Positions 18,964 to 50,585 of a stretch of DNA of 64,000 nt are shown piece by piece. Source of the DNA: an uncultured Gemmatimonadales bacterium (GTDB lineage Bacteria > Gemmatimonadota > Gemmatimonadetes > Gemmatimonadales > GWC2-71-9). The first letter of the stretch is position 1; each line of letters opens with the position of its first letter. Position numbers and translations under genes: made by a program. The stretch is from assembly GCA_963826065.1 (NCBI GenBank), contig CAWGVP010000006.1:128336-192335 (forward strand), read 5' to 3'. The notes under the pieces were generated by a model that saw nothing but the letters and a program-made list of their open reading frames with translations, was not told where the DNA came from and made no database searches.

Positions 18964-21363
18964 TTGACCGTCACCCTGCGGCACGTGCTCACGCGGCCCG
19001 CAATCCTGTTGCCGACCGCCGCCGGCGTCGCCGGACGGCTCGCCGTTCGTCTCTGGCTCGCATCCATGGTGTGCTGGTGGGTCGTGGGCATCCAGTTCTC
19101 CCGCCTCTGGTGGCTGGTCAACGAGAAGCAGCTCGACTGGATCCTCTTCTGCTACGCCTGGGAAGTGCCGGCCGTGGGCTGGACCGGCGCGGTGTTGCTC
19201 CCCTGGCTCCGTCTCCGGGGTCTGGTTCACCGCCTGCCGCTCGGCGATCCCATCACGAGCCGGCAGCTCGCCCGATTCCCGCTCTTCGTCTTCTGGATGG
19301 TTCTGGGGACCAGTACGGCGGTGTACGCTCTCGGGGCCTTGCAGGTGGGCTACTTCGCCGCCCTTCCCACCCTCGAAGTCGCCAAGATCATGATCCAGGG
19401 CCCCGCGCTCGGCGGACTCTTCGCGGTCGCGGCGTACCTCATGGCCGAGCGCGCGATCCAGGATGTCGCGGTACCCCCGCGCCCACCGGCCGGGGACGAG
19501 GAAGGGCGCGTGGTGGAGTCGCTGTACTGGAAGGTGTTCTCCATCGCGGTCGCCCTCACGGTCGGGGTGGCGGTGCCCATCGTGCTGCACGGGCTCAGCC
19601 AGACGCAGCGACACCGGGAAGAGCTTCGTGCCGTCGCGCTGGTGGAGGCGGTGCAGGGCGCCTCCAGCGACGTCGGCCTCGCGGCCGCGCTGACTCCGTT
19701 GGGACCCGGCACCTACGGCTTCGTGGTACGGCGCTCCAACAACTACATCATCGGGGGACGGGGCACGGGCACCGTGTTCTACGGCGACGGCAGGGGAGAC
19801 TTCGCACCGATTCAGGTGCGCGACCAGGGCTGGTTCGCCAGCCGCGACGGGGAGCACAAGGTGGTGGCGTTCGTCCACCGGCCCGGGGTGCTCCCCGATG
19901 GCGACGGGGCGGTCTTCGTCGCGGTGTCGCCGCTCTCGGATTATGCCGCGGAGCTGAGTGGGGAAGGCCGCACTTCGGCGGCGGTCGCGCTGGCGGCACT
20001 GGTGATCGCGCTGATCCTGGCCTCAGGCCTCGCGCGCAGCATCGTGCTTCCCATCGAGCGTCTGCGCGCGGCCGCGGCCCAGATGGCCCGGGGCGATCTC
20101 GATGTCGCGCCGGTGGGCTTCGCCCGCGGCGACGAGGTGGCGGCGCTGGCCTACGCCTTCGACCGCATGGCATTCCGGGTCCGGACCGACGGGGCCGATC
20201 TCCGGTCGGCATACGAGCAGCTCCAGCGCGCCCAGGCCCAGGCGCTCCAGCACGAGCGGCTGTCCGCTATCGGCCGGGTGGCGTCCGGCGTCGCCCACGA
20301 GCTCAACAACCCGCTCTCCGCCGTCCTGCACCTGGCGGAGGACCTCCGGGCCGACGACACCAGGTCGGGCCACGAGCGGGAGGCACTCGACACCATCGCC
20401 GATCAGGTGCGGCGCTGCCGCACGATCGTCCGGGATCTGCTCTCGTTCGCCCGCGGACAGGAGCGGCGGCCCGAGAGCGCGGGGGCTTCGACCATCCTCG
20501 CACGCGCCGGTGCTGCCGCGGAGCCGTTGCTGCGGGAGACTCGCACCCGTCTGCAGACGAGGGTCGCCCCCGACATGTCCGACATCCTGACCGACGCGCC
20601 GGGGCTGGAGCTGGTGCTCACCAATCTGATCGTCAACGCCGTCCACGCCGCGGGCCACGACGGTTGGGTGCGAGTCGACGGAAGCTGGGTGGGTGAGGGG
20701 TGGCAATTCGCGGTGGAAGACAGCGGGTCAGGCATCGCGGCGGACGTGCTTCCCCGGATCTTCGAGCCGTTCTTCACAACCAAGCCCGAGGGGCAGGGCA
20801 CGGGGCTCGGGCTCGCGGTGTCGCTCGGCATCGTGCAACGCCTGGGCGGAACGCTCCGGGCGGAACCGGGCGGCGACGGCCGGGGGGCGCGCTTCGTGGT
20901 GCGGATTCCGCCGTCGCCGAACGCGCCGGCGAAGCGGGTCACCGCACTGCCCGGGCCCACCGGTCCGGCCCTCGATGCCGACGGCCGGCCGCGGGTGCTG
21001 CTGGTGGACGACGAGCGATCGATTCGCCTGGCGCTGGGCCGCTACATGCGGCGGAACGGCTGGGAGGTGGACGAGGCGGAGGATGGCGCGGTGGCGCTGG
21101 GGAAGCTGGACGCGTCCTCGCCGGAGGGCTACGACCTGGTCATCACCGATCTCCGGATGCCGGTGCTCTCCGGTTTCGAGGTGCACGACTGGCTGGCCGT
21201 GCACCGGCCTGACCTCTTCGCCCGGCTGATCATCGCCACGGGCGACGTGGCCTCGCAGCCAGTGCGGGAATTCCTCGACCGCACGCCGAGGCCGGTGCTG
21301 GAGAAGCCGTTCGAGCTCGCCGCGCTGGCGGAACTGGTGGGGAGGGTGCGGCGGGAGGGGTGA
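18964..21363 (+). CDS. Hybrid sensor histidine kinase/response regulator (TM sensor, HAMP, HisKA, HATPase, REC)
   Basis: HAMP region 'PIERLRAAAAQMARGDLD', H-box 'SGVAHELNNPLS', G-boxes 'DSGSGI' and 'GTGLGLAVS', receiver 'VLLVDDE...ITDLRMP'. The TTG start is uncertain. Confidence 0.85.
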   Translation: MTVTLRHVLTRPAILLPTAAGVAGRLAVRLWLASMVCWWVVGIQFSRLWWLVNEKQLDWILFCYAWEVPAVGWTGAVLLPWLRLRGLVHRLPLGDPITSRQLARFPLFVFWMVLGTSTAVYALGALQVGYFAALPTLEVAKIMIQGPALGGLFAVAAYLMAERAIQDVAVPPRPPAGDEEGRVVESLYWKVFSIAVALTVGVAVPIVLHGLSQTQRHREELRAVALVEAVQGASSDVGLAAALTPLGPGTYGFVVRRSNNYIIGGRGTGTVFYGDGRGDFAPIQVRDQGWFASRDGEHKVVAFVHRPGVLPDGDGAVFVAVSPLSDYAAELSGEGRTSAAVALAALVIALILASGLARSIVLPIERLRAAAAQMARGDLDVAPVGFARGDEVAALAYAFDRMAFRVRTDGADLRSAYEQLQRAQAQALQHERLSAIGRVASGVAHELNNPLSAVLHLAEDLRADDTRSGHEREALDTIADQVRRCRTIVRDLLSFARGQERRPESAGASTILARAGAAAEPLLRETRTRLQTRVAPDMSDILTDAPGLELVLTNLIVNAVHAAGHDGWVRVDGSWVGEGWQFAVEDSGSGIAADVLPRIFEPFFTTKPEGQGTGLGLAVSLGIVQRLGGTLRAEPGGDGRGARFVVRIPPSPNAPAKRVTALPGPTGPALDADGRPRVLLVDDERSIRLALGRYMRRNGWEVDEAEDGAVALGKLDASSPEGYDLVITDLRMPVLSGFEVHDWLAVHRPDLFARLIIATGDVASQPVREFLDRTPRPVLEKPFELAALAELVGRVRREG

Positions 21364-21440
21364 GCTTGTCATCCTGAGCGCAGCGAAGGAGGCCATCTCC
21401 GGGCATGGCCTCCTTCGCTGCGCTCAGGATGACAAGCTCA
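21361..21440. repeat. Palindromic REP-like element, copy B: perfect 36-bp inverted repeat with 8-nt loop; likely bidirectional terminator
   Basis: Arm 21361..21396 (tgagcttgtcatcctgagcgcagcgaaggaggccat) is the exact reverse complement of arm 21405..21440. It lies between convergent genes and contains both of their stop codons. Confidence 0.9.
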
Positions 21441-40938: not shown

Positions 40939-41002
40939 TCATCCTGAGCGAAGCGAAGGAGCCATGATCCAGACTATGGCTCCTTCGCTTCGCTCAGGAT
41001 GA
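40939..41002. repeat. Palindromic REP-like element, copy C: perfect 27-bp arms, 10-nt loop, between convergent genes
   Basis: Arm 40939..40965 (tcatcctgagcgaagcgaaggagccat) is the exact reverse complement of arm 40976..41002. It lies between the AI-2E stop (40912) and the OmpA stop (41034). Confidence 0.9.
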
Positions 41003-45400: not shown

Positions 45401-48240
45401 CGTGGAACGACGAAAGCCAGTTCAAGATGGACGTCGTGCCGGATCGCACCCGCTACGCGGTGGGCGACACGGCGACGATTCTCTTCGCGTCCCCCTTCAC
45501 CGACGCGGAGGCCTGGGTCACGCTGGAGCGCGAGGGTCTGATCGAGCAGCGGCGCATGCGGATCGAGAGCGGTACCACCACGCTCTCGGTTCCCATCACC
45601 GAGGCGCTCGCGCCGAACGTATTCGTCTCGATCGTGGTGGCCCGGGGCCGGAGCGCACCGCCCGGCCCGCTGGACGATCCGGGCCGGCCCACCATCCGGG
45701 TGGGATACGCCGAGCTGCGGGTGACGCCGGAGCGAAAGCGTCTGGCGGTGCGGGTGGCGCCGCTCGCCGCCGAATATCGCCCGGGCGACACGGCGCAGGT
45801 GGCGATCGAAGTGCGCGACGGGGCCGGCGCGGGCCAGCGCAGCGAGGTGACGCTCTGGGCCGTGGATGAAGGCGTGCTCGCGCTCACCGGATACCGTACG
45901 CCCGATCCGCTCGATCTGCTGTATGGCCCCCGTGGTCTGGGCATGCGGCTGGCGAGCACCCTCACCACGGTGACCCCGCAGATCCCCGAAGGCGAGAAGG
46001 GAAAGCGGGCGCCCGGCGGCGGCGGCGGTGCCGACGGGGCGGACGTCCTGCGCAGCCGTTTCCAGACCACGGCGTTCTTCCTCGGGTCGCTCGTCACCAG
46101 CGCCGACGGCCGGGGCGTCGCCTCGGCGCGCCTGCCGGACAATCTCACGACGTTTCGAGTGATGGCGGTCGCGGTGACGGCCGGTGATCGCTACGGCAGC
46201 GGGCAGTCATCGCTGCTGGTCACCCGACCCCTGGTGGCGCGGCCCGCGCTGCCCCGGTTCCTCCGCGACGGAGACCGGTTCGCCGCCGGGGTCGTGGTCA
46301 ATCGGCGCGCGGGGAAGGAAGCAGCGGTCACAGTCGAGGCGCGGGCGACGGGCGTCGAGCTCGAAGGCCGCCGCAAGAAGCAGGCGGCGCTCGAGCCCGG
46401 GCGCGGGCGCGAAATACGGTTCGACTTCGTGGCGGGCGAGGGCGATAGCCTGTCCCGGGCGGGCTTCCGCTTCCAGGCAAAATCCGGCGCGGACGCGGAC
46501 GCCGTCGCGCTCACCGTCCCGGTGCGTCCGGCGCACCACCCGCAGTCATTCACCGTGGCCGGTGTGCTCCGCGATTCGGCCACGGCCGAGCTGGCGCTCC
46601 CGGACGACGTGGACCCCGCCCGCTCGACCCTTCGGCTCAGCCTCGGCACCTCGCCGCTTGCGATGATCCGGGGCGTCCGGGAGCGGTTCCGGGTCTATCC
46701 CTATTGGTGCAGCGAGCAGATCGCCAGCGCCGCCGAGCCGCTGCTCGCACTCTACCGCGCGGCGCCGGAGCTCGGCGCCGACTCGGCGGTCGCGCGCCAC
46801 GCGCGGAGCGACCTCGAGCAGGTCGTCGCGACGCTGGTGCGCCGCCAGCGGGCGGATGGCGGCATCGGCCTCTGGAGCGCGGCGGACTGGTCCACGCCGT
46901 GGCTGAGCGCGTATGCCGGCGCGGTGTTGCTCGAGGCGAAGGCGGCCGGCTTCTCGGTGAGCGACTCGGTCCTGGCTCGCCTCGGCGGGTATCTCCAGCG
47001 TTCACTCAAGGAGAGCGGCCCCATCCTCGCGCCCGTGGCCGCGTGGTACGACAGCAGCGAGGTGCGGCTCGGCGACCGGGTCATGGCCGTGGACTACCTG
47101 AGCCGGGCGGGCCTCCGAGATCCCGCGGCGGAGAACGAGCTGCTGCGTCTCGCGCCCCAGCTGGCCTGGGAAGATCGGGTCCGCCTGGCCCACGTGCTTG
47201 CGCGGGGCGGGGACCGGGCCGCCGCGCTCCGGCTGCTGGAGCCGGCATGGAATGACGTGAAGATCGAGGGGCGCGCCGCGACGCTGCCGAAGGCGACGCG
47301 GCGGGCATTCTACTTCATGTCGCCCATCCGCCCTGTCGCGTGGCTGTTGAGCGCCACGCTCGCGGTGAACCCCGCCCATCCGCTGGTCGGCCCCATGGTC
47401 GAGACCCTGATCCAGCAGGGCCGGTCCGGCTGGACCTGGAATACTCAGGATCTGGGAACCGCCGTGGCGGCGCTGGCGGAGTTCCAGCGGCAGCAGAAGG
47501 CCGGCGTTGCCCGCGGAGTTCGGGTGAGCTCCGGCAAGAAGACGGTGTTCGAAGCCGCCGCGCTCGGCGCGGCGAGCGAGCGGAGCATCCCGCTCGACCG
47601 GCTGCCGGGCGGGGCAATCGCAGACGGAAAGCTGCGACTCTCGCTCGGTGCACGAGATCCGGCAGAGGTGGGCGCGCCGGTGTTCTACTATCTCACGGCG
47701 ACGATCGTGCCCAGGAAGGCTCCGGTGCGGCCGGGTGATCGCGGCATCCAGGTCGAGCGTTGGTATGAAAGCTTCGAGACGGGCCGGCCCACCATGGAGG
47801 TCGCCGAAGGGGAGCTGGTTCGCGTGAGGCTCCGGATCACCGTTCCCTCGGAGCGCCATTTCGTGATCCTGGACGACGCGCTGCCGGCGGGATTCGAGGC
47901 GGTGGACTTGAGTCTCCGCACCGTCGGGGGTGTCGCGGGTCCGGGCGCCGCGAACTCGGTGTCGGCCGAGGGGGATGGCGAGGGGCCGATGCCGTGGGTG
48001 TACGGCAGCTGGGACGCCGGCTGGTGGTCGCCGTTCGATCATCGCGAGATGCGGGACGACCGCGTCGTGTTCGCCGCGACCCGGCTCTGGCCGGGGAGCT
48101 ACACCGCGACCTACCTGGCGAGGGCGACGACCCCGGGCACGTTCATACGGCCGCCGGCGCACGCCGAGGAGATGTACAACCCGGCGGTGTTCGGCGAGAG
48201 CGACGGGGGTGTGTTCACCGTGCGAGCGGCCGGCCCGTGA
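42481..48240 (+). CDS. Bacterial alpha-2-macroglobulin family protein (YfhM-like) with thioester motif
   Basis: About 1919 aa starting at the ATG at 42481. It has the 'YPYWCSEQ' thioester (CxEQ) context and sits immediately upstream of pbpC, which is the conserved partner. Confidence 0.9.
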   Translation: MIPLQSLSPKVLAATTLLLLADVAPELRVLRVVPAADAAPTATVTITFDRPVAGSLDRTVDAREIFSIAPAVAGHVDWRDPVTLRFRPSAPLPADRSFTVTVSDRFEAMDGGRLNAPFVHSFRVRGSRALAGYPVGPSTSGRHLAPDSRFELVIDAPVDSTVVNRSVYLEFDRTCRSPGVVRLRLEAERALADDDRWDFREAGGWDRDRASDPLRRVLRLAPRTPLPRGCRGHLVVPASFDEHGRSQPQRWALSTYGDFRVVRARCGWGGTTCPTGPLVVHFSTPVRGADVLRGLSIRPAAAFSLTDTADVRDEWVLQTELKPRTGYAIVADRSLTDAFGQRMSGNPVVTTSTTGYAPAIDYPSGRTLVERRGSHTFGVTYVNVDTLEVLVAPIPDSLEAAFLARSEWSWRERWPSIFARAEPRRIAVRGDRDRMRVYGVPLDPPAGKGGTRPALMAVQVTSGRLDSMSRAYRPIALVQVSDLGVHARVGTEDAAVWVTGANDGRPRAGASVTLHDARGRILARARTDTLGLARLAPFAPQPPPADTAADQEIRWSGFQGYLSVVLGDDRAVLGINDYDPDLSPWRFNVQSAWGSDRLPAAAALFTERGIYRPGEPLFAKAIVRTGPLGSLRRPSAGDSLRWVFHDRADESGESGVLRDTTVALSAFGTAEQRFEVPTGAALGEYRIVAHLRREGRWTDLGLTSYRVAEYRPPEFLVDVSADSVARFAQDSISAAVEARYLFGAPMGRAAVRWTLRQESLLYDGVEIPGTEGYSIGDGGWWYEELSEARAPVAIPASGIDTLDADGRLGLRLRLGDTERGRPSRATLEATVTDVNRQTVSAASSFIVHPAAFYLAAKPEGESWFWSAGKPASIGVLAVGPDGRRVTGVRVEGAVVRREWHQVRRERAGYAELVGEWVSDTVAHCAIDSADEPRPCRFTPPAGGSYIAGFRALDAAGRTVHTSLYRWAVGSDWVPWNDESQFKMDVVPDRTRYAVGDTATILFASPFTDAEAWVTLEREGLIEQRRMRIESGTTTLSVPITEALAPNVFVSIVVARGRSAPPGPLDDPGRPTIRVGYAELRVTPERKRLAVRVAPLAAEYRPGDTAQVAIEVRDGAGAGQRSEVTLWAVDEGVLALTGYRTPDPLDLLYGPRGLGMRLASTLTTVTPQIPEGEKGKRAPGGGGGADGADVLRSRFQTTAFFLGSLVTSADGRGVASARLPDNLTTFRVMAVAVTAGDRYGSGQSSLLVTRPLVARPALPRFLRDGDRFAAGVVVNRRAGKEAAVTVEARATGVELEGRRKKQAALEPGRGREIRFDFVAGEGDSLSRAGFRFQAKSGADADAVALTVPVRPAHHPQSFTVAGVLRDSATAELALPDDVDPARSTLRLSLGTSPLAMIRGVRERFRVYPYWCSEQIASAAEPLLALYRAAPELGADSAVARHARSDLEQVVATLVRRQRADGGIGLWSAADWSTPWLSAYAGAVLLEAKAAGFSVSDSVLARLGGYLQRSLKESGPILAPVAAWYDSSEVRLGDRVMAVDYLSRAGLRDPAAENELLRLAPQLAWEDRVRLAHVLARGGDRAAALRLLEPAWNDVKIEGRAATLPKATRRAFYFMSPIRPVAWLLSATLAVNPAHPLVGPMVETLIQQGRSGWTWNTQDLGTAVAALAEFQRQQKAGVARGVRVSSGKKTVFEAAALGAASERSIPLDRLPGGAIADGKLRLSLGARDPAEVGAPVFYYLTATIVPRKAPVRPGDRGIQVERWYESFETGRPTMEVAEGELVRVRLRITVPSERHFVILDDALPAGFEAVDLSLRTVGGVAGPGAANSVSAEGDGEGPMPWVYGSWDAGWWSPFDHREMRDDRVVFAATRLWPGSYTATYLARATTPGTFIRPPAHAEEMYNPAVFGESDGGVFTVRAAGP

Positions 48241-48251
48241 CGGAACACCGG

Positions 48252-50585
48252 ATGAAGCGGCGCGCGGTCGGCGCGGGCGCTGTCCTGGCGTCGATGATCG
48301 GCGGGGCGGCGCTGTGGGTGGCTCAGCCGTTGCCTGAGGACCTGCTCGAGCCCGCAGGCCGGGTGGTGACCCTGGAGGACCGGTTCGGGCGAGAGCTCCG
48401 CACGACACGGGGGCCGGACGGCAGCCGGGCCGGGTGGCTCCGGCTGGAGGAGATCGACGCCGATGTCATCGCGGCCTTCGTCGCGGTCGAGGACCACCGC
48501 TTCTACCGCCATCGGGGTGTGGATCCGCGATCGGTGGCGCGGGCCGCGTGGGCCAATCTGCGTGCCGGCCGCATCGTGTCGGGCGGCTCGACGATCACGA
48601 TGCAGCTCGCCCGCATGCTGCGCCCGACCCCGCGAACCTGGGTGGGCAAGGCTGGCCAGGCGCTCTGGGCGATCCGGCTGGAGCGACAACTCGGCAAACA
48701 GGCGATTCTCGAGCAGTACCTGAACCGGGTGCCGCTGGGACAGGGTTCGGTCGGCGTGGTGGCGGGGGCGGCACTCTATTTCGGAGCCGGCGCGGGTGAT
48801 CTGAGCCTGGGGCAGGCCGCGGTGCTTGCGGGCATCGCGCGCGCGCCGTCCAGCGACAACCCGCTGGTCGCGCCGGCCCGCACGCGCCGCCGTCGCGACC
48901 AGGCCCTCTCGCGGCTGGCTGAGTTGGGATACGCATCTTCGATCTCCGCGGATCGGGCGGGGGCCGAGCCGCTGCTCCGGCGGCAGCACGCCGCGCCCTT
49001 CCTCGCCCCGCACTTCACCACCCGTATTCTCCATTGGGCGGAGCGCGACGGCCGACCCTCACACGGAACCTGGCGCACCTCGCTCGACCTCGAGCTGCAG
49101 GTCGAGCTGGAGCGGGAGGTGGGACACGCGGTGGAGACCCTCGCCGATCGGGGCGCGCGTCACGCCGCCGCGGTGGTGCTCGACAACCGGAGCGGCGAGA
49201 TCCTCGCCTGGGTGGGGTCACCCGACTTCTGGGCCGACACCGCGGGGCAGGTAGACATGGTGGTGAGCCCGCGACAGCCCGGGTCCGCGCTGAAGCCCTT
49301 CCTGTACGCGCTCGCGTTCGATCGCGGCTGGACTCCCGCATCCATCCTGCCCGACATCGCCCGGGTGTACCAGACCGGCATCGGTCCGTACAGTCCGCGC
49401 AACTACGACCGCCGGTTCCACGGGCCCGTGCGGGCACGCGAGGCGCTCGCCAGCTCCTACAACATTCCCGCCGTGGAGCTGGCGAGCCGCCTGGGGGTCG
49501 GGAGCCTGCTTCAGGTGCTGCGCGCGGCAGGGTTCACCTCGCTTGCCCGGAGTGCGGATCACTACGGTCTCGGTCTCTCCCTCGGGAACGGCGACGTCAG
49601 CCTGCTCGAGCTGGCCAACGGCTTTCGGGGTCTGGTCAACCGTGGCGTGTGGCGCCCCTATACCTGGCGCGCCGGCATGCCTGAGCGCCTTCTGCCATCG
49701 GGCCATCGCTTCGCGAGCGAGCGCTCGGCGGCGCTGGTGCTGGACATCCTGGCCGACCCGGTCGCGCGCATCCCCGGCTTCGGGATCGAGAGCCCGCTCG
49801 ATTTCCCCTTTCCGGTTGCGGCCAAGACCGGCACCAGCCGGCACTTCACCGACAACTGGGCGGTGGGTGCGGCGGGCGGATTCACCGTCGCGGTCTGGGT
49901 GGGAAACTTCAGCGGCCGGCCGATGGACGGTGTGAGCGGTGTCAGCGGTGCGGGCCCGCTGCTCCATCGCGCCGTGCTGGCGACGGCACGGCGCTACCCC
50001 GCGGGCTCGCTGCCCGATCCGCGCGACCACGATGCCGTGGGTGCGAGAATCTGTCGCCTGTCCGGTCTTCGCCCGGGCGCCGAGTGCCCGGCGGGGACGG
50101 AGTGGTTCGCGCCTGGAGACGTCCCCGCGGACACCTGTGACTGGCACGGCGTGGAGGGCGGAGTCACCCTGCCGGTCGAGTATGCCGAGTGGGCCGAGCG
50201 CGCGCAGTTGCCTCGGAGCCGGGGCGGTGTCAGTGTCGGTGTCAGTGTCATCCTGAGCGGAGCGAAGGAGCCGAAGCCCGAGCATGGCCTCCTTCGCTCC
50301 GCTCAGGATGACAACAATGACACCACTCCACCGCGACTGGCCGCCGGTTTCCACATCGTATCGCCGCGCGACGGCGACGTATATCGACTGATGCCCGGCG
50401 TGGACGTACGCTATGCCACCGTGGCACTCCGCGCTGCTGGAGGCCGCGGCGATGGCCGGACCCGCTGGAGCGTGGACGACGTTCCCCACGGCGGAACCCG
50501 GTGGACCCTCGAGCCGGGTCGGCATCGGGTCCGCGCCGTCTCCGCGTCGGGTGACTCCGCCGAGGTCACCGTGCGCGTGGAATGA
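48252..50585 (+). CDS. pbpC: Penicillin-binding protein 1C (bifunctional glycosyltransferase/transpeptidase) carrying an in-frame repeat insertion
   Basis: GT51 motifs are 'EDHRFYRHRGVD' and 'GGSTITMQLAR'. Transpeptidase motifs are 'SALKPF' (SxxK), 'SYN' and 'KTGTS'. A C-terminal PBP1C-type domain follows the insertion. Confidence 0.9.
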   Translation: MKRRAVGAGAVLASMIGGAALWVAQPLPEDLLEPAGRVVTLEDRFGRELRTTRGPDGSRAGWLRLEEIDADVIAAFVAVEDHRFYRHRGVDPRSVARAAWANLRAGRIVSGGSTITMQLARMLRPTPRTWVGKAGQALWAIRLERQLGKQAILEQYLNRVPLGQGSVGVVAGAALYFGAGAGDLSLGQAAVLAGIARAPSSDNPLVAPARTRRRRDQALSRLAELGYASSISADRAGAEPLLRRQHAAPFLAPHFTTRILHWAERDGRPSHGTWRTSLDLELQVELEREVGHAVETLADRGARHAAAVVLDNRSGEILAWVGSPDFWADTAGQVDMVVSPRQPGSALKPFLYALAFDRGWTPASILPDIARVYQTGIGPYSPRNYDRRFHGPVRAREALASSYNIPAVELASRLGVGSLLQVLRAAGFTSLARSADHYGLGLSLGNGDVSLLELANGFRGLVNRGVWRPYTWRAGMPERLLPSGHRFASERSAALVLDILADPVARIPGFGIESPLDFPFPVAAKTGTSRHFTDNWAVGAAGGFTVAVWVGNFSGRPMDGVSGVSGAGPLLHRAVLATARRYPAGSLPDPRDHDAVGARICRLSGLRPGAECPAGTEWFAPGDVPADTCDWHGVEGGVTLPVEYAEWAERAQLPRSRGGVSVGVSVILSGAKEPKPEHGLLRSAQDDNNDTTPPRLAAGFHIVSPRDGDVYRLMPGVDVRYATVALRAAGGRGDGRTRWSVDDVPHGGTRWTLEPGRHRVRAVSASGDSAEVTVRVE
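50247..50312. repeat. Palindromic REP-like element, copy D, inside the pbpC reading frame (66 nt = 22 codons)
   Basis: Arm 50247..50270 (gtcatcctgagcggagcgaaggag) is the exact reverse complement of arm 50289..50312. It is translated as ...VILSGAKEPKPEHGLLRSAQDD.... A 12-bp tandem duplication (ggtgtcagtgtc x2, 50226..50249) precedes it. Confidence 0.9.

Follow-up and report, generated by a model that had tools for sequence, protein, structure and literature searches.

The question raised by this locus is how a nearly perfect palindrome can lie inside a protein-coding gene whose reading frame nevertheless stays open. The gene is pbpC, which encodes penicillin-binding protein 1C (PBP1C) and occupies positions 48252–50585 of a 64,000-nucleotide stretch of DNA from an uncultured Gemmatimonadales bacterium (GenBank assembly GCA_963826065.1, contig CAWGVP010000006.1, positions 128,336–192,335), hereafter the window; the palindrome is found at 50246–50313. 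A preliminary description of the locus had proposed an in-frame insertion of a palindromic element, flanked by a 12-bp tandem duplication, and had offered either a tolerated linker insertion or a recent event as its origin. Our analysis leads us to regard the sequence, with a probability of roughly 0.85, as a selfish palindromic repeat that entered the gene in frame long ago and is tolerated there, the repeat being the form lacking an open reading frame (ORF) of a ~390-nt element encoding a GIY-YIG nuclease. Coordinates are those of the window, which equals C6:128336–192335 of its own genome (G000), unless a G000 or L label is given, and all features within pbpC are on the plus strand.

A repeat search delimits two arms of 32 nt each, at 50246–50277 (TGTCATCCTGAGCGGAGCGAAGGAGCCGAAGC) and 50282–50313, which are 91% complementary and separated by 4 nt. 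The perfect part of the stem comprises 24 bp, with 50247–50270 paired to 50289–50312, and between these lies a copy-specific central segment at 50271–50288 (CCGAAGCCCGAGCATGGC). The predicted folding energy of the palindrome is −70.4 kcal/mol as RNA (z = −8.95, with 0 of 200 shuffled sequences folding as well) and −49.1 kcal/mol as DNA (z = −10.2). According to a family consensus built from 89 copies, the element measures 68–70 nt and has the form (G)TGTC...GACA(C). In the pbpC copy imperfect pairing reaches further out, to 50238–50324, where an echo of the terminus in the right flank (ACAATGACACC, 50314–50324) pairs with 50238–50248 and thereby lengthens the hairpin. Counted from GTC to GAC (50247–50312), the copy spans 66 nt or 22 codons, the length originally described. 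A scan of 50100–50450 against Rfam with E-values up to 1 returned nothing but sub-threshold microRNA and snoRNA noise, which rules out a known RNA family, and site prediction detected no U-tract and no terminator-like or promoter-like site at the insert, so that an intrinsic terminator or promoter was also discarded as an identity for it.

The host gene is intact. An open frame at 47994–50585 runs uninterrupted through the palindrome, and a PbpC product identical to the 777-residue protein predicted here is on record (P0129). The likeliest start codon is the ATG at 48252, which by our count lies 9 nt past the stop of the upstream alpha-2-macroglobulin gene (TGA at 48238–48240). Pfam recognizes Transgly, Transpeptidase, and BiPBP_C domains in the product; the insert follows the KTGT motif, which begins at 49824, and the Transpeptidase match, and it precedes BiPBP_C. 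Only one of the three frames through the element is free of stop codons, the other two ending at the TGA within TCCTGA or GGATGA, and in this frame the gene reads ...GVSVGVSVILSGAKEPKPEHGLLRSAQDDNNDTT..., from which we infer that 22 extra residues are added to an inter-domain linker. The repeat search, the predicted fold, and the single stop-free frame thus uphold the preliminary description as far as the nature of the element, its position between the transpeptidase motifs and the C-terminal domain, and its open frame are concerned.

Structure prediction, which had been suggested as a check, does place the insert in a linker. In an AlphaFold2 model based on a 42-sequence alignment (mean predicted local distance difference test score, pLDDT, of 75), residues 652–698 have a pLDDT below 50 and no secondary structure, and the entire insert falls within this disordered segment, which extends from the helix at 643–653 (YAEWAER) to the first BiPBP_C strand at 702–705. 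The corresponding coding region, 50202–50348, varies in length and sequence among orthologs: counted from the helix to FHIVSP, the linker has 47 residues here, compared with 20–40 in orthologs free of the insert. The ratio of nonsynonymous to synonymous substitution rates (dN/dS) is 0.18–0.30 for the BiPBP_C part downstream of the insert and 0.14–0.23 for the part upstream, where a narrower range of 0.17–0.19 is also recorded; the C-terminal domain is therefore translated and under purifying selection.

The palindrome belongs to a large repeat family. A 21-nt arm sequence, which both pbpC arms match at 0 mismatches, has 7 matches in the window where 0 are expected; across the 4.37-Mb genome it has 337, whereas its reversed control yields 1. 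A profile search of this genome with nhmmer recovered 196 loci, 133 of them full length (65–75 nt), with the consensus (G)TGTCATCCTGAGCGnAGCGAAGGAG - ~18 nt - CTCCTTCGCTnCGCTCAGGATGACA(C); the copy most similar to that in pbpC, at G000:C2:1152265, differs from it by 1 nt. Most copies are flanked by non-coding sequence on one or both sides, and conservation ends at TGTC/GACA ± 1. Target-site duplications were rejected: among 88 copies, direct repeats of 2–5 nt were no more frequent than in shuffled pairings at any boundary from 0 to 7. The family is present in 23 of the 24 genomes searched within the genus, with 1 to ~250 arm matches each, and in none of the 16 searched from other genera of the order. 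It is a selfish palindromic family of a kind resembling repetitive extragenic palindromic (REP) sequences and miniature transposable elements with inverted repeats (MITEs). Other copies in the window lie at ~510–574, 40939–41002, and 21361–21440; in the last of these the palindrome runs 15 nt past the core, making it a long-stem outlier among the 88 copies. Extension of the palindrome into the flanks was considered as a general rule and abandoned, because most copies end at TGTC/GACA ± 1 and long extensions are rare.

A candidate for the coding partner of these repeats is found on the same contig, outside the window. At G000:C6:250823–251203, on the minus strand, an ORF at 250829–251128 for a protein of 100 residues lies between repeat arms of the GTCACCCTGAGCG...GGGG subtype; its sole Pfam match is to the GIY-YIG domain (PF01541, 46.8 bits against a cut-off of 22.6, E = 3.8e-12), and it has no match in NCBIfam. 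A second GIY-YIG ORF, whose product is 46% identical to the first, is located at G000:C5:514900–515290 between arms of a sister family (ATCCCGAGCGnAGCGAGGGATCGG), which also has ~17 copies without an ORF (GTCATCCCGAGCGnAGCGAGGGATCGG..., ~100 nt, with an inner hairpin). In both cases the arm encodes the C-terminus of the protein together with its TGA stop codon, reading APSLRSG in the C6 protein and DPSLRSG in the C5 protein. The ORF-bearing element measures ~390 nt, encodes no recognized transposase, and specifies a protein of ~95–100 residues that consists of the catalytic domain alone. The arm motif is found on both sides in 18 of 30 GIY-YIG loci of the genus, typically 24–61 nt before the start codon and again overlapping the last 18 nt of the ORF. 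The copy at C6 appears to be the autonomous parent from which the 68-nt palindromes derive, and by analogy with known systems its product may mobilize them. A search for the transposase associated with REP sequences (RAYT; Y1_Tnp, PF01797) gave 0 matches in this genome, which is 93% complete, although control genomes were matched, and DUF559 (PF04480), sought in the same genome as another conceivable partner, was not found either.

The arm sequence extends well beyond the genus. Its exact 23-nt core, GTCATCCTGAGCGAAGCGAAGGA, occurs in at least 120 genome stretches that span Acidobacteriota, Verrucomicrobiota, Bacteroidota, Chloroflexota, Nitrospirales, Lachnospiraceae, Patescibacteria, Bdellovibrionales, Myxococcales, and several Proteobacteria. 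Of the 120 homologs that match the GIY-YIG protein best in a large protein collection, 33 end in SLRSG, and next to four GIY-YIG proteins from other lineages, one of them labelled Bacteroidetes, the motif adjoins the ORF in varying arrangements. The stretches carrying the 23-mer (L039–L118) contain either hairpins with variable loops or solitary arms, and in several copies (e.g., L053, L060, L063, and L090) part of the flank, together with the first ~12 nt, is repeated upstream.

When did the repeat enter pbpC, and what has become of it since? We codon-aligned the DNA of eight metagenomic alleles with the pbpC of the window and with orthologs from the genus. The full element is present in our own allele and in P0002 and P0127, and also in P0126, where 6 nt of the left flanking repeat are missing. 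P0123 retains the right arm only, a 39-nt deletion having removed the left arm and the loop, and P0131 has no core. The left arm and loop alone are left in P0003, P0133, P0135, P0004, and P0134, which lack 60 nt comprising the right arm and downstream linker; P0134 is further scrambled. No trace of the element is seen in P0005, G014, or more distant orthologs. The central segment identifies orthologous copies in relatives, as CCGAAGCCCGAGCATGGC recurs with at most one change in P0002, P0127, P0126, P0003, and P0134. One further allele of the P0002 cluster, P0124, was left out of the analysis; it matches P0002 exactly as far as the transpeptidase domain, has a much more divergent C-terminus thereafter, and is probably a chimeric assembly.

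The distribution of these states points to a single origin. In a maximum-likelihood tree computed with IQ-TREE without the linker columns, one clade holds all the alleles that bear a trace of the element (support 100/99), and its sister group consists of the element-free P0005 and G014. P0131 and P0123 are nested among the full-element alleles (95/98 and 96/96, respectively). All indels in the alignment are multiples of 3, the deletion junctions show 1–3 nt of microhomology, and the deletions abolish the hairpin, whose DNA folding energy of −49 kcal/mol shrinks to values of −11 to −18 kcal/mol. The simplest history is a single insertion, after which the element was deleted in frame at least three times independently. 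The ortholog alignment also shows that the insert is lineage-specific. Five genomes of the genus that have a PbpC ortholog (G014, G005, G007, G001, and G012) show a variable linker without the insert peptide, and among 134 PbpC homologs in the large protein collection the element-derived peptides are confined to one clade, even though the family is present elsewhere; G014 alone has ~246 arm matches in the rest of its genome and an empty pbpC linker. With a synonymous divergence (dS) of ~0.2 within the full-element group and of 0.54–0.69 between our allele and the P0003 clade, which shares the insertion, the event is old. Of the two origins first offered, tolerated insertion into a linker is therefore retained, in keeping with the disorder of the segment and the purifying selection beyond it, and a recent event is not. 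In G014 (L010:1079–1150) and G012 (L014:2333–2392), a full element lies ~50–140 nt past the stop codon of pbpC with the linker itself empty; the neighborhood of this gene has thus been hit independently.

The duplicated 12-mer immediately 5′ of the left arm is real, and its origin can be narrowed down. CGGTGTCAGTGT occurs as an exact tandem at 50225–50236 and 50237–50248 or, in the other phase, as GGTGTCAGTGTC at 50226–50249. The latter interval is a stutter of hexamers, (GGTGTC AGTGTC) × 2, which encodes GVSVGVSV and amounts to four iterations of RGTGTC, the last GTGTC being the element's own terminus. The number of such hexamers differs among alleles: four in ours, P0002, and P0127, three in P0126, and two in P0003 and P0134. 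On the right, the echo ACAATGACACC belongs to a GACAMC/GACACC repeat that likewise varies among alleles and has grown to (GACACCACY) × 3 in P0131. A scar of insertion and replication slippage had both been proposed for the 12-mer. Because the family shows no target-site duplications (88 copies), because the P0003 clade shares the insertion yet lacks the duplication, and because the hexamer count ranges from 2 to 4, we favor slippage at the base of the hairpin over an insertion scar. Echoes of the terminus are weakly enriched in the family as a whole (20 of 176 flanks compared with 8 of 176 controls, p = 0.03), too weakly for us to claim terminal stutter as a hallmark of the family.

These results support the following course of events. 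A single copy landed once in the linker-encoding DNA of PBP1C, in the ancestor shared by a group of species of one Gemmatimonadales genus. Survival in a gene demands that the element be read in the frame VILSxAK...LLRxAQDD and that the net change in length be divisible by three; the pbpC copy satisfies both demands, and would have lengthened the linker by 22 residues while leaving PBP1C functional. The hairpin has since been an unstable spot in the DNA, where slippage of the terminal hexamers probably gave rise to the 12-mer duplication and where three lineages lost an arm, or the core in its entirety, through deletions that kept the frame.

Several observations weigh against this account. No pristine empty site can be aligned, which makes the inserted length and the junctions approximate, and translation of the insert is a prediction. 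Among the four full-element alleles, which represent three well-separated lineages, none of the 70 sites of the element varies, and a purely neutral passenger would not be invariant, which implies that constraint of some kind or gene conversion is at work. As to the parent element, the GIY-YIG protein may act in mobility, to judge from this architecture by analogy with RAYTs and REP sequences, and a tblastn search for GIY-YIG near the 23-mer found it at 0 of 80 loci of other phyla, so that the cross-phylum link comes only from the four loci fetched by protein. The latter outcome is expected if ORF-less copies far outnumber parent copies.

The invariance deserves closer attention, as it is an argument that the intact hairpin has a function in pbpC and is kept by selection, be it as an mRNA stabilizer or barrier to RNase, as a translational pause between domains, or as a site bound by a protein of the host or of the element. 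The probability of 0/70 is 8e-4 given the 9.6% of sites that vary gene-wide, 0.01 given the 18% at third codon positions, and 7e-5 given the 12.8% in the linker next to it. Among the full-element alleles, the longest stretch of pbpC free of variation, 86 aligned positions from 50225, has the element at its core, and the half-remnants in P0003 and P0134 do gain substitutions and indels. The intact palindrome is, in other words, either kept unchanged or lost. It is this repeated loss that makes an essential role unlikely, since pbpC stayed intact, and equally subject to purifying selection, in the three lineages that lost the hairpin. Moreover, most orthologs never had the element, no U-tract or terminator-like feature follows it, and the invariance could instead come from gene conversion by paralogs, one of which is a single base away, or from a constraint that acts on the whole family. 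Selection on the hairpin, recognition by a protein of the element, and conversion from near-identical paralogs are all possible causes, and we consider a function within pbpC unlikely. One arm position that varies within the family (50258–50260/50298–50300) has a G...C pair in the full alleles (GCGGAGCG/CGCTCCGC), an A in the left-half remnant of P0003, and a T in the right-half remnant of P0123. The G...C state could reflect a compensatory change from A-T to G-C in the intact hairpin, or else the two remnants could each have changed later on their own.

An exchange with foreign alleles of pbpC by recombination offers another way to explain P0131 and the half alleles, in which case the insertion would be younger and a patchy polymorphism. 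Metagenomic populations do recombine, and P0131 is no clean excision, given its (GACACCACY) × 3 and differing left flank. However, P0131 and P0123 retain clade-specific flanks on both sides (RDRGDVG... and ...DTTPPRPAAG), are 94–95% identical to the full-element alleles elsewhere, and nest among them at 95–98% support, whereas the known element-free outgroups are just 76–79% identical; the microhomology of 1–3 nt at the junctions, too, is as found in slippage deletions. We rate this history as even less probable than a functional hairpin. A further rival is that the palindrome arose in assembly or binning, or that it is ancestral linker that merely resembles the repeat. Repeats are a frequent cause of misassembly, and P0124 is clearly chimeric downstream of the transpeptidase domain, but the insert is identical, in the same frame and position, in independent assemblies of different samples, at least five in number (JGI 3300078324, 3300074359, and 3300063430; ENA ERZ28613970 and ERZ27248630). 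In addition, the arms match the 21-mer at 0 mismatches, and outgroup linkers show no trace of the insert. Either form of this explanation is extremely improbable. An old, tolerated insertion thus remains our preferred reading, and the alleles form a natural series of one insertion, three or four lineages with a base-perfect hairpin, and three independent in-frame losses, which shows how selection for an open frame shapes the decay of inserts.

A wider hypothesis would account for the invariance in another way, and we put it forward tentatively, at somewhat short of even odds. The repeats may belong to a cross-phylum class of mobile elements in which a GIY-YIG protein of ~95–100 residues, with its stop codon in the right arm, mobilizes hairpins as RAYTs do REP sequences. 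Recognition by the nuclease would have kept GTCATCCTGAGCGAAGCGAAGGA unchanged from Acidobacteriota to Bacteroidota and Lachnospiraceae, and the invariance in pbpC at a dS of ~0.2 would stem from this recognition or from nuclease-driven repair or conversion rather than from protein function. If the nuclease does mobilize hairpins, the REP/RAYT type of system would have a second representative, one that relies on another enzyme, and this would explain a very common, seemingly unannotated motif of soil and gut metagenomes. Literature searches on the arm sequence, and on GIY-YIG in connection with REP, MITE, or terminal inverted repeats (TIRs) in prokaryotes, found nothing relevant, and both the family and its GIY-YIG link appear to be undescribed.

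The closest description we can give is that of a REP-like hairpin family with a minimal GIY-YIG nuclease as its single-copy partner. Like REP/REPIN-RAYT systems, it comprises abundant short hairpins that are overwhelmingly intergenic and lack target-site duplications, in one genome-specific family with a single-copy coding partner flanked by repeats. It differs in that the genome has no PF01797 gene, the flanked gene being GIY-YIG instead, in the lack of a GTAG-type 5′ tetranucleotide, and in the occurrence of the 23-nt arm core across many phyla, whereas REP sequences are usually lineage-specific; as no RAYT was found, the family is not a REP/RAYT system. Intragenic ERIC, Correia, and Nezha-type MITEs are known, with occasional in-frame fusions to host ORFs (PMC10969869), and the present family resembles MITEs in that the terminal inverted repeats of its ORF-less copies are also those of a parent with an ORF. 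However, it is not a classical MITE, given the absence of target-site duplications and of a DDE or other known transposase in the parent, and the whole element is one hairpin rather than two TIRs around unrelated DNA. With homing endonucleases of the I-TevI type it shares the GIY-YIG catalytic domain, but it has no separate DNA-binding domain, and its gene is bracketed by hairpin arms in an intergenic part of the chromosome, not in an intron, an intein, or a phage intergenic site.

The copy in pbpC is not the only one to be read through. A screen of all 196 loci for spanning ORFs that show a coding signal to either side of the element, with Pfam searches of the candidates, yielded at least six further in-frame copies and, with pbpC, seven copies in six genes. 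Four of the six lie between Pfam domains. In a GlcF-like Fe-S/CCG protein (G000:C2:1000609–1000677) the copy separates Fer4 from CCG, in ThiC (G000:C3:179112–179181) the ThiC-associated from the radical-SAM domain, and in NadE (G000:C6:244149–244184) a half copy occupies the linker that joins CN_hydrolase to NAD_synthase; the fourth is in a BatA/VWA-TPR protein (G000:C2:1115756–1115834). The remaining two, in a DnaE-like DNA polymerase III alpha subunit (G000:C6:84398–87877, minus strand), read IVTLSEARGTMRGHGPLRFAQ (residues 146–169) and CHPERSEGGHARYGPLRSAQG (residues 896–919) and interrupt the PHP and HHH_6 matches. In-frame intragenic copies make up ~3–4% of the family, although most of the genome is coding. 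Selection must therefore act strongly against insertion into genes, and such insertions survive only in tolerant places and in an open frame.

In this respect the repeat works like the Rickettsia palindromic elements (RPEs), which occur in frame in protein-coding genes (Ogata et al. 2000, Science 290:347, as cited in PMC10969869). RPEs and the Wolbachia palindromic elements have in-frame copies in unrelated housekeeping genes, each adding an extra peptide compatible with the fold and function of the protein, and all seven copies found here are likewise between domains or at their edges. We do not claim membership for the Gemmatimonadota repeat, and homology to RPE families is unlikely. The unit is ~68 nt compared with ~150 nt, the sequences are probably unrelated, only ~3–4% of the family is intragenic, in contrast to the unusually frequent intragenic location of RPEs, and the hosts are free-living soil bacteria of the Gemmatimonadota. 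The family also has an ORF-bearing GIY-YIG parent, and we know of none for RPEs. The known curiosity of selfish palindromes translated inside housekeeping genes is thereby extended to free-living Gemmatimonadota, and annotation pipelines will meet VILSEAK.../...LRSAQDD peptides in real proteins.

Two minor points concern the screen. An earlier census of the copies based on third-position GC content (GC3) and codon log-odds was too conservative, missing even pbpC, and was replaced by the spanning-ORF screen with Pfam; four candidates of the latter (C2:954459, C3:76014, C3:257231, and C4:515840) proved to be read-through of antisense or upstream non-coding sequence and were discarded. In the BatA/VWA-TPR protein, the copy falls between two predicted membrane segments, and the element might mark the fusion of two former genes.

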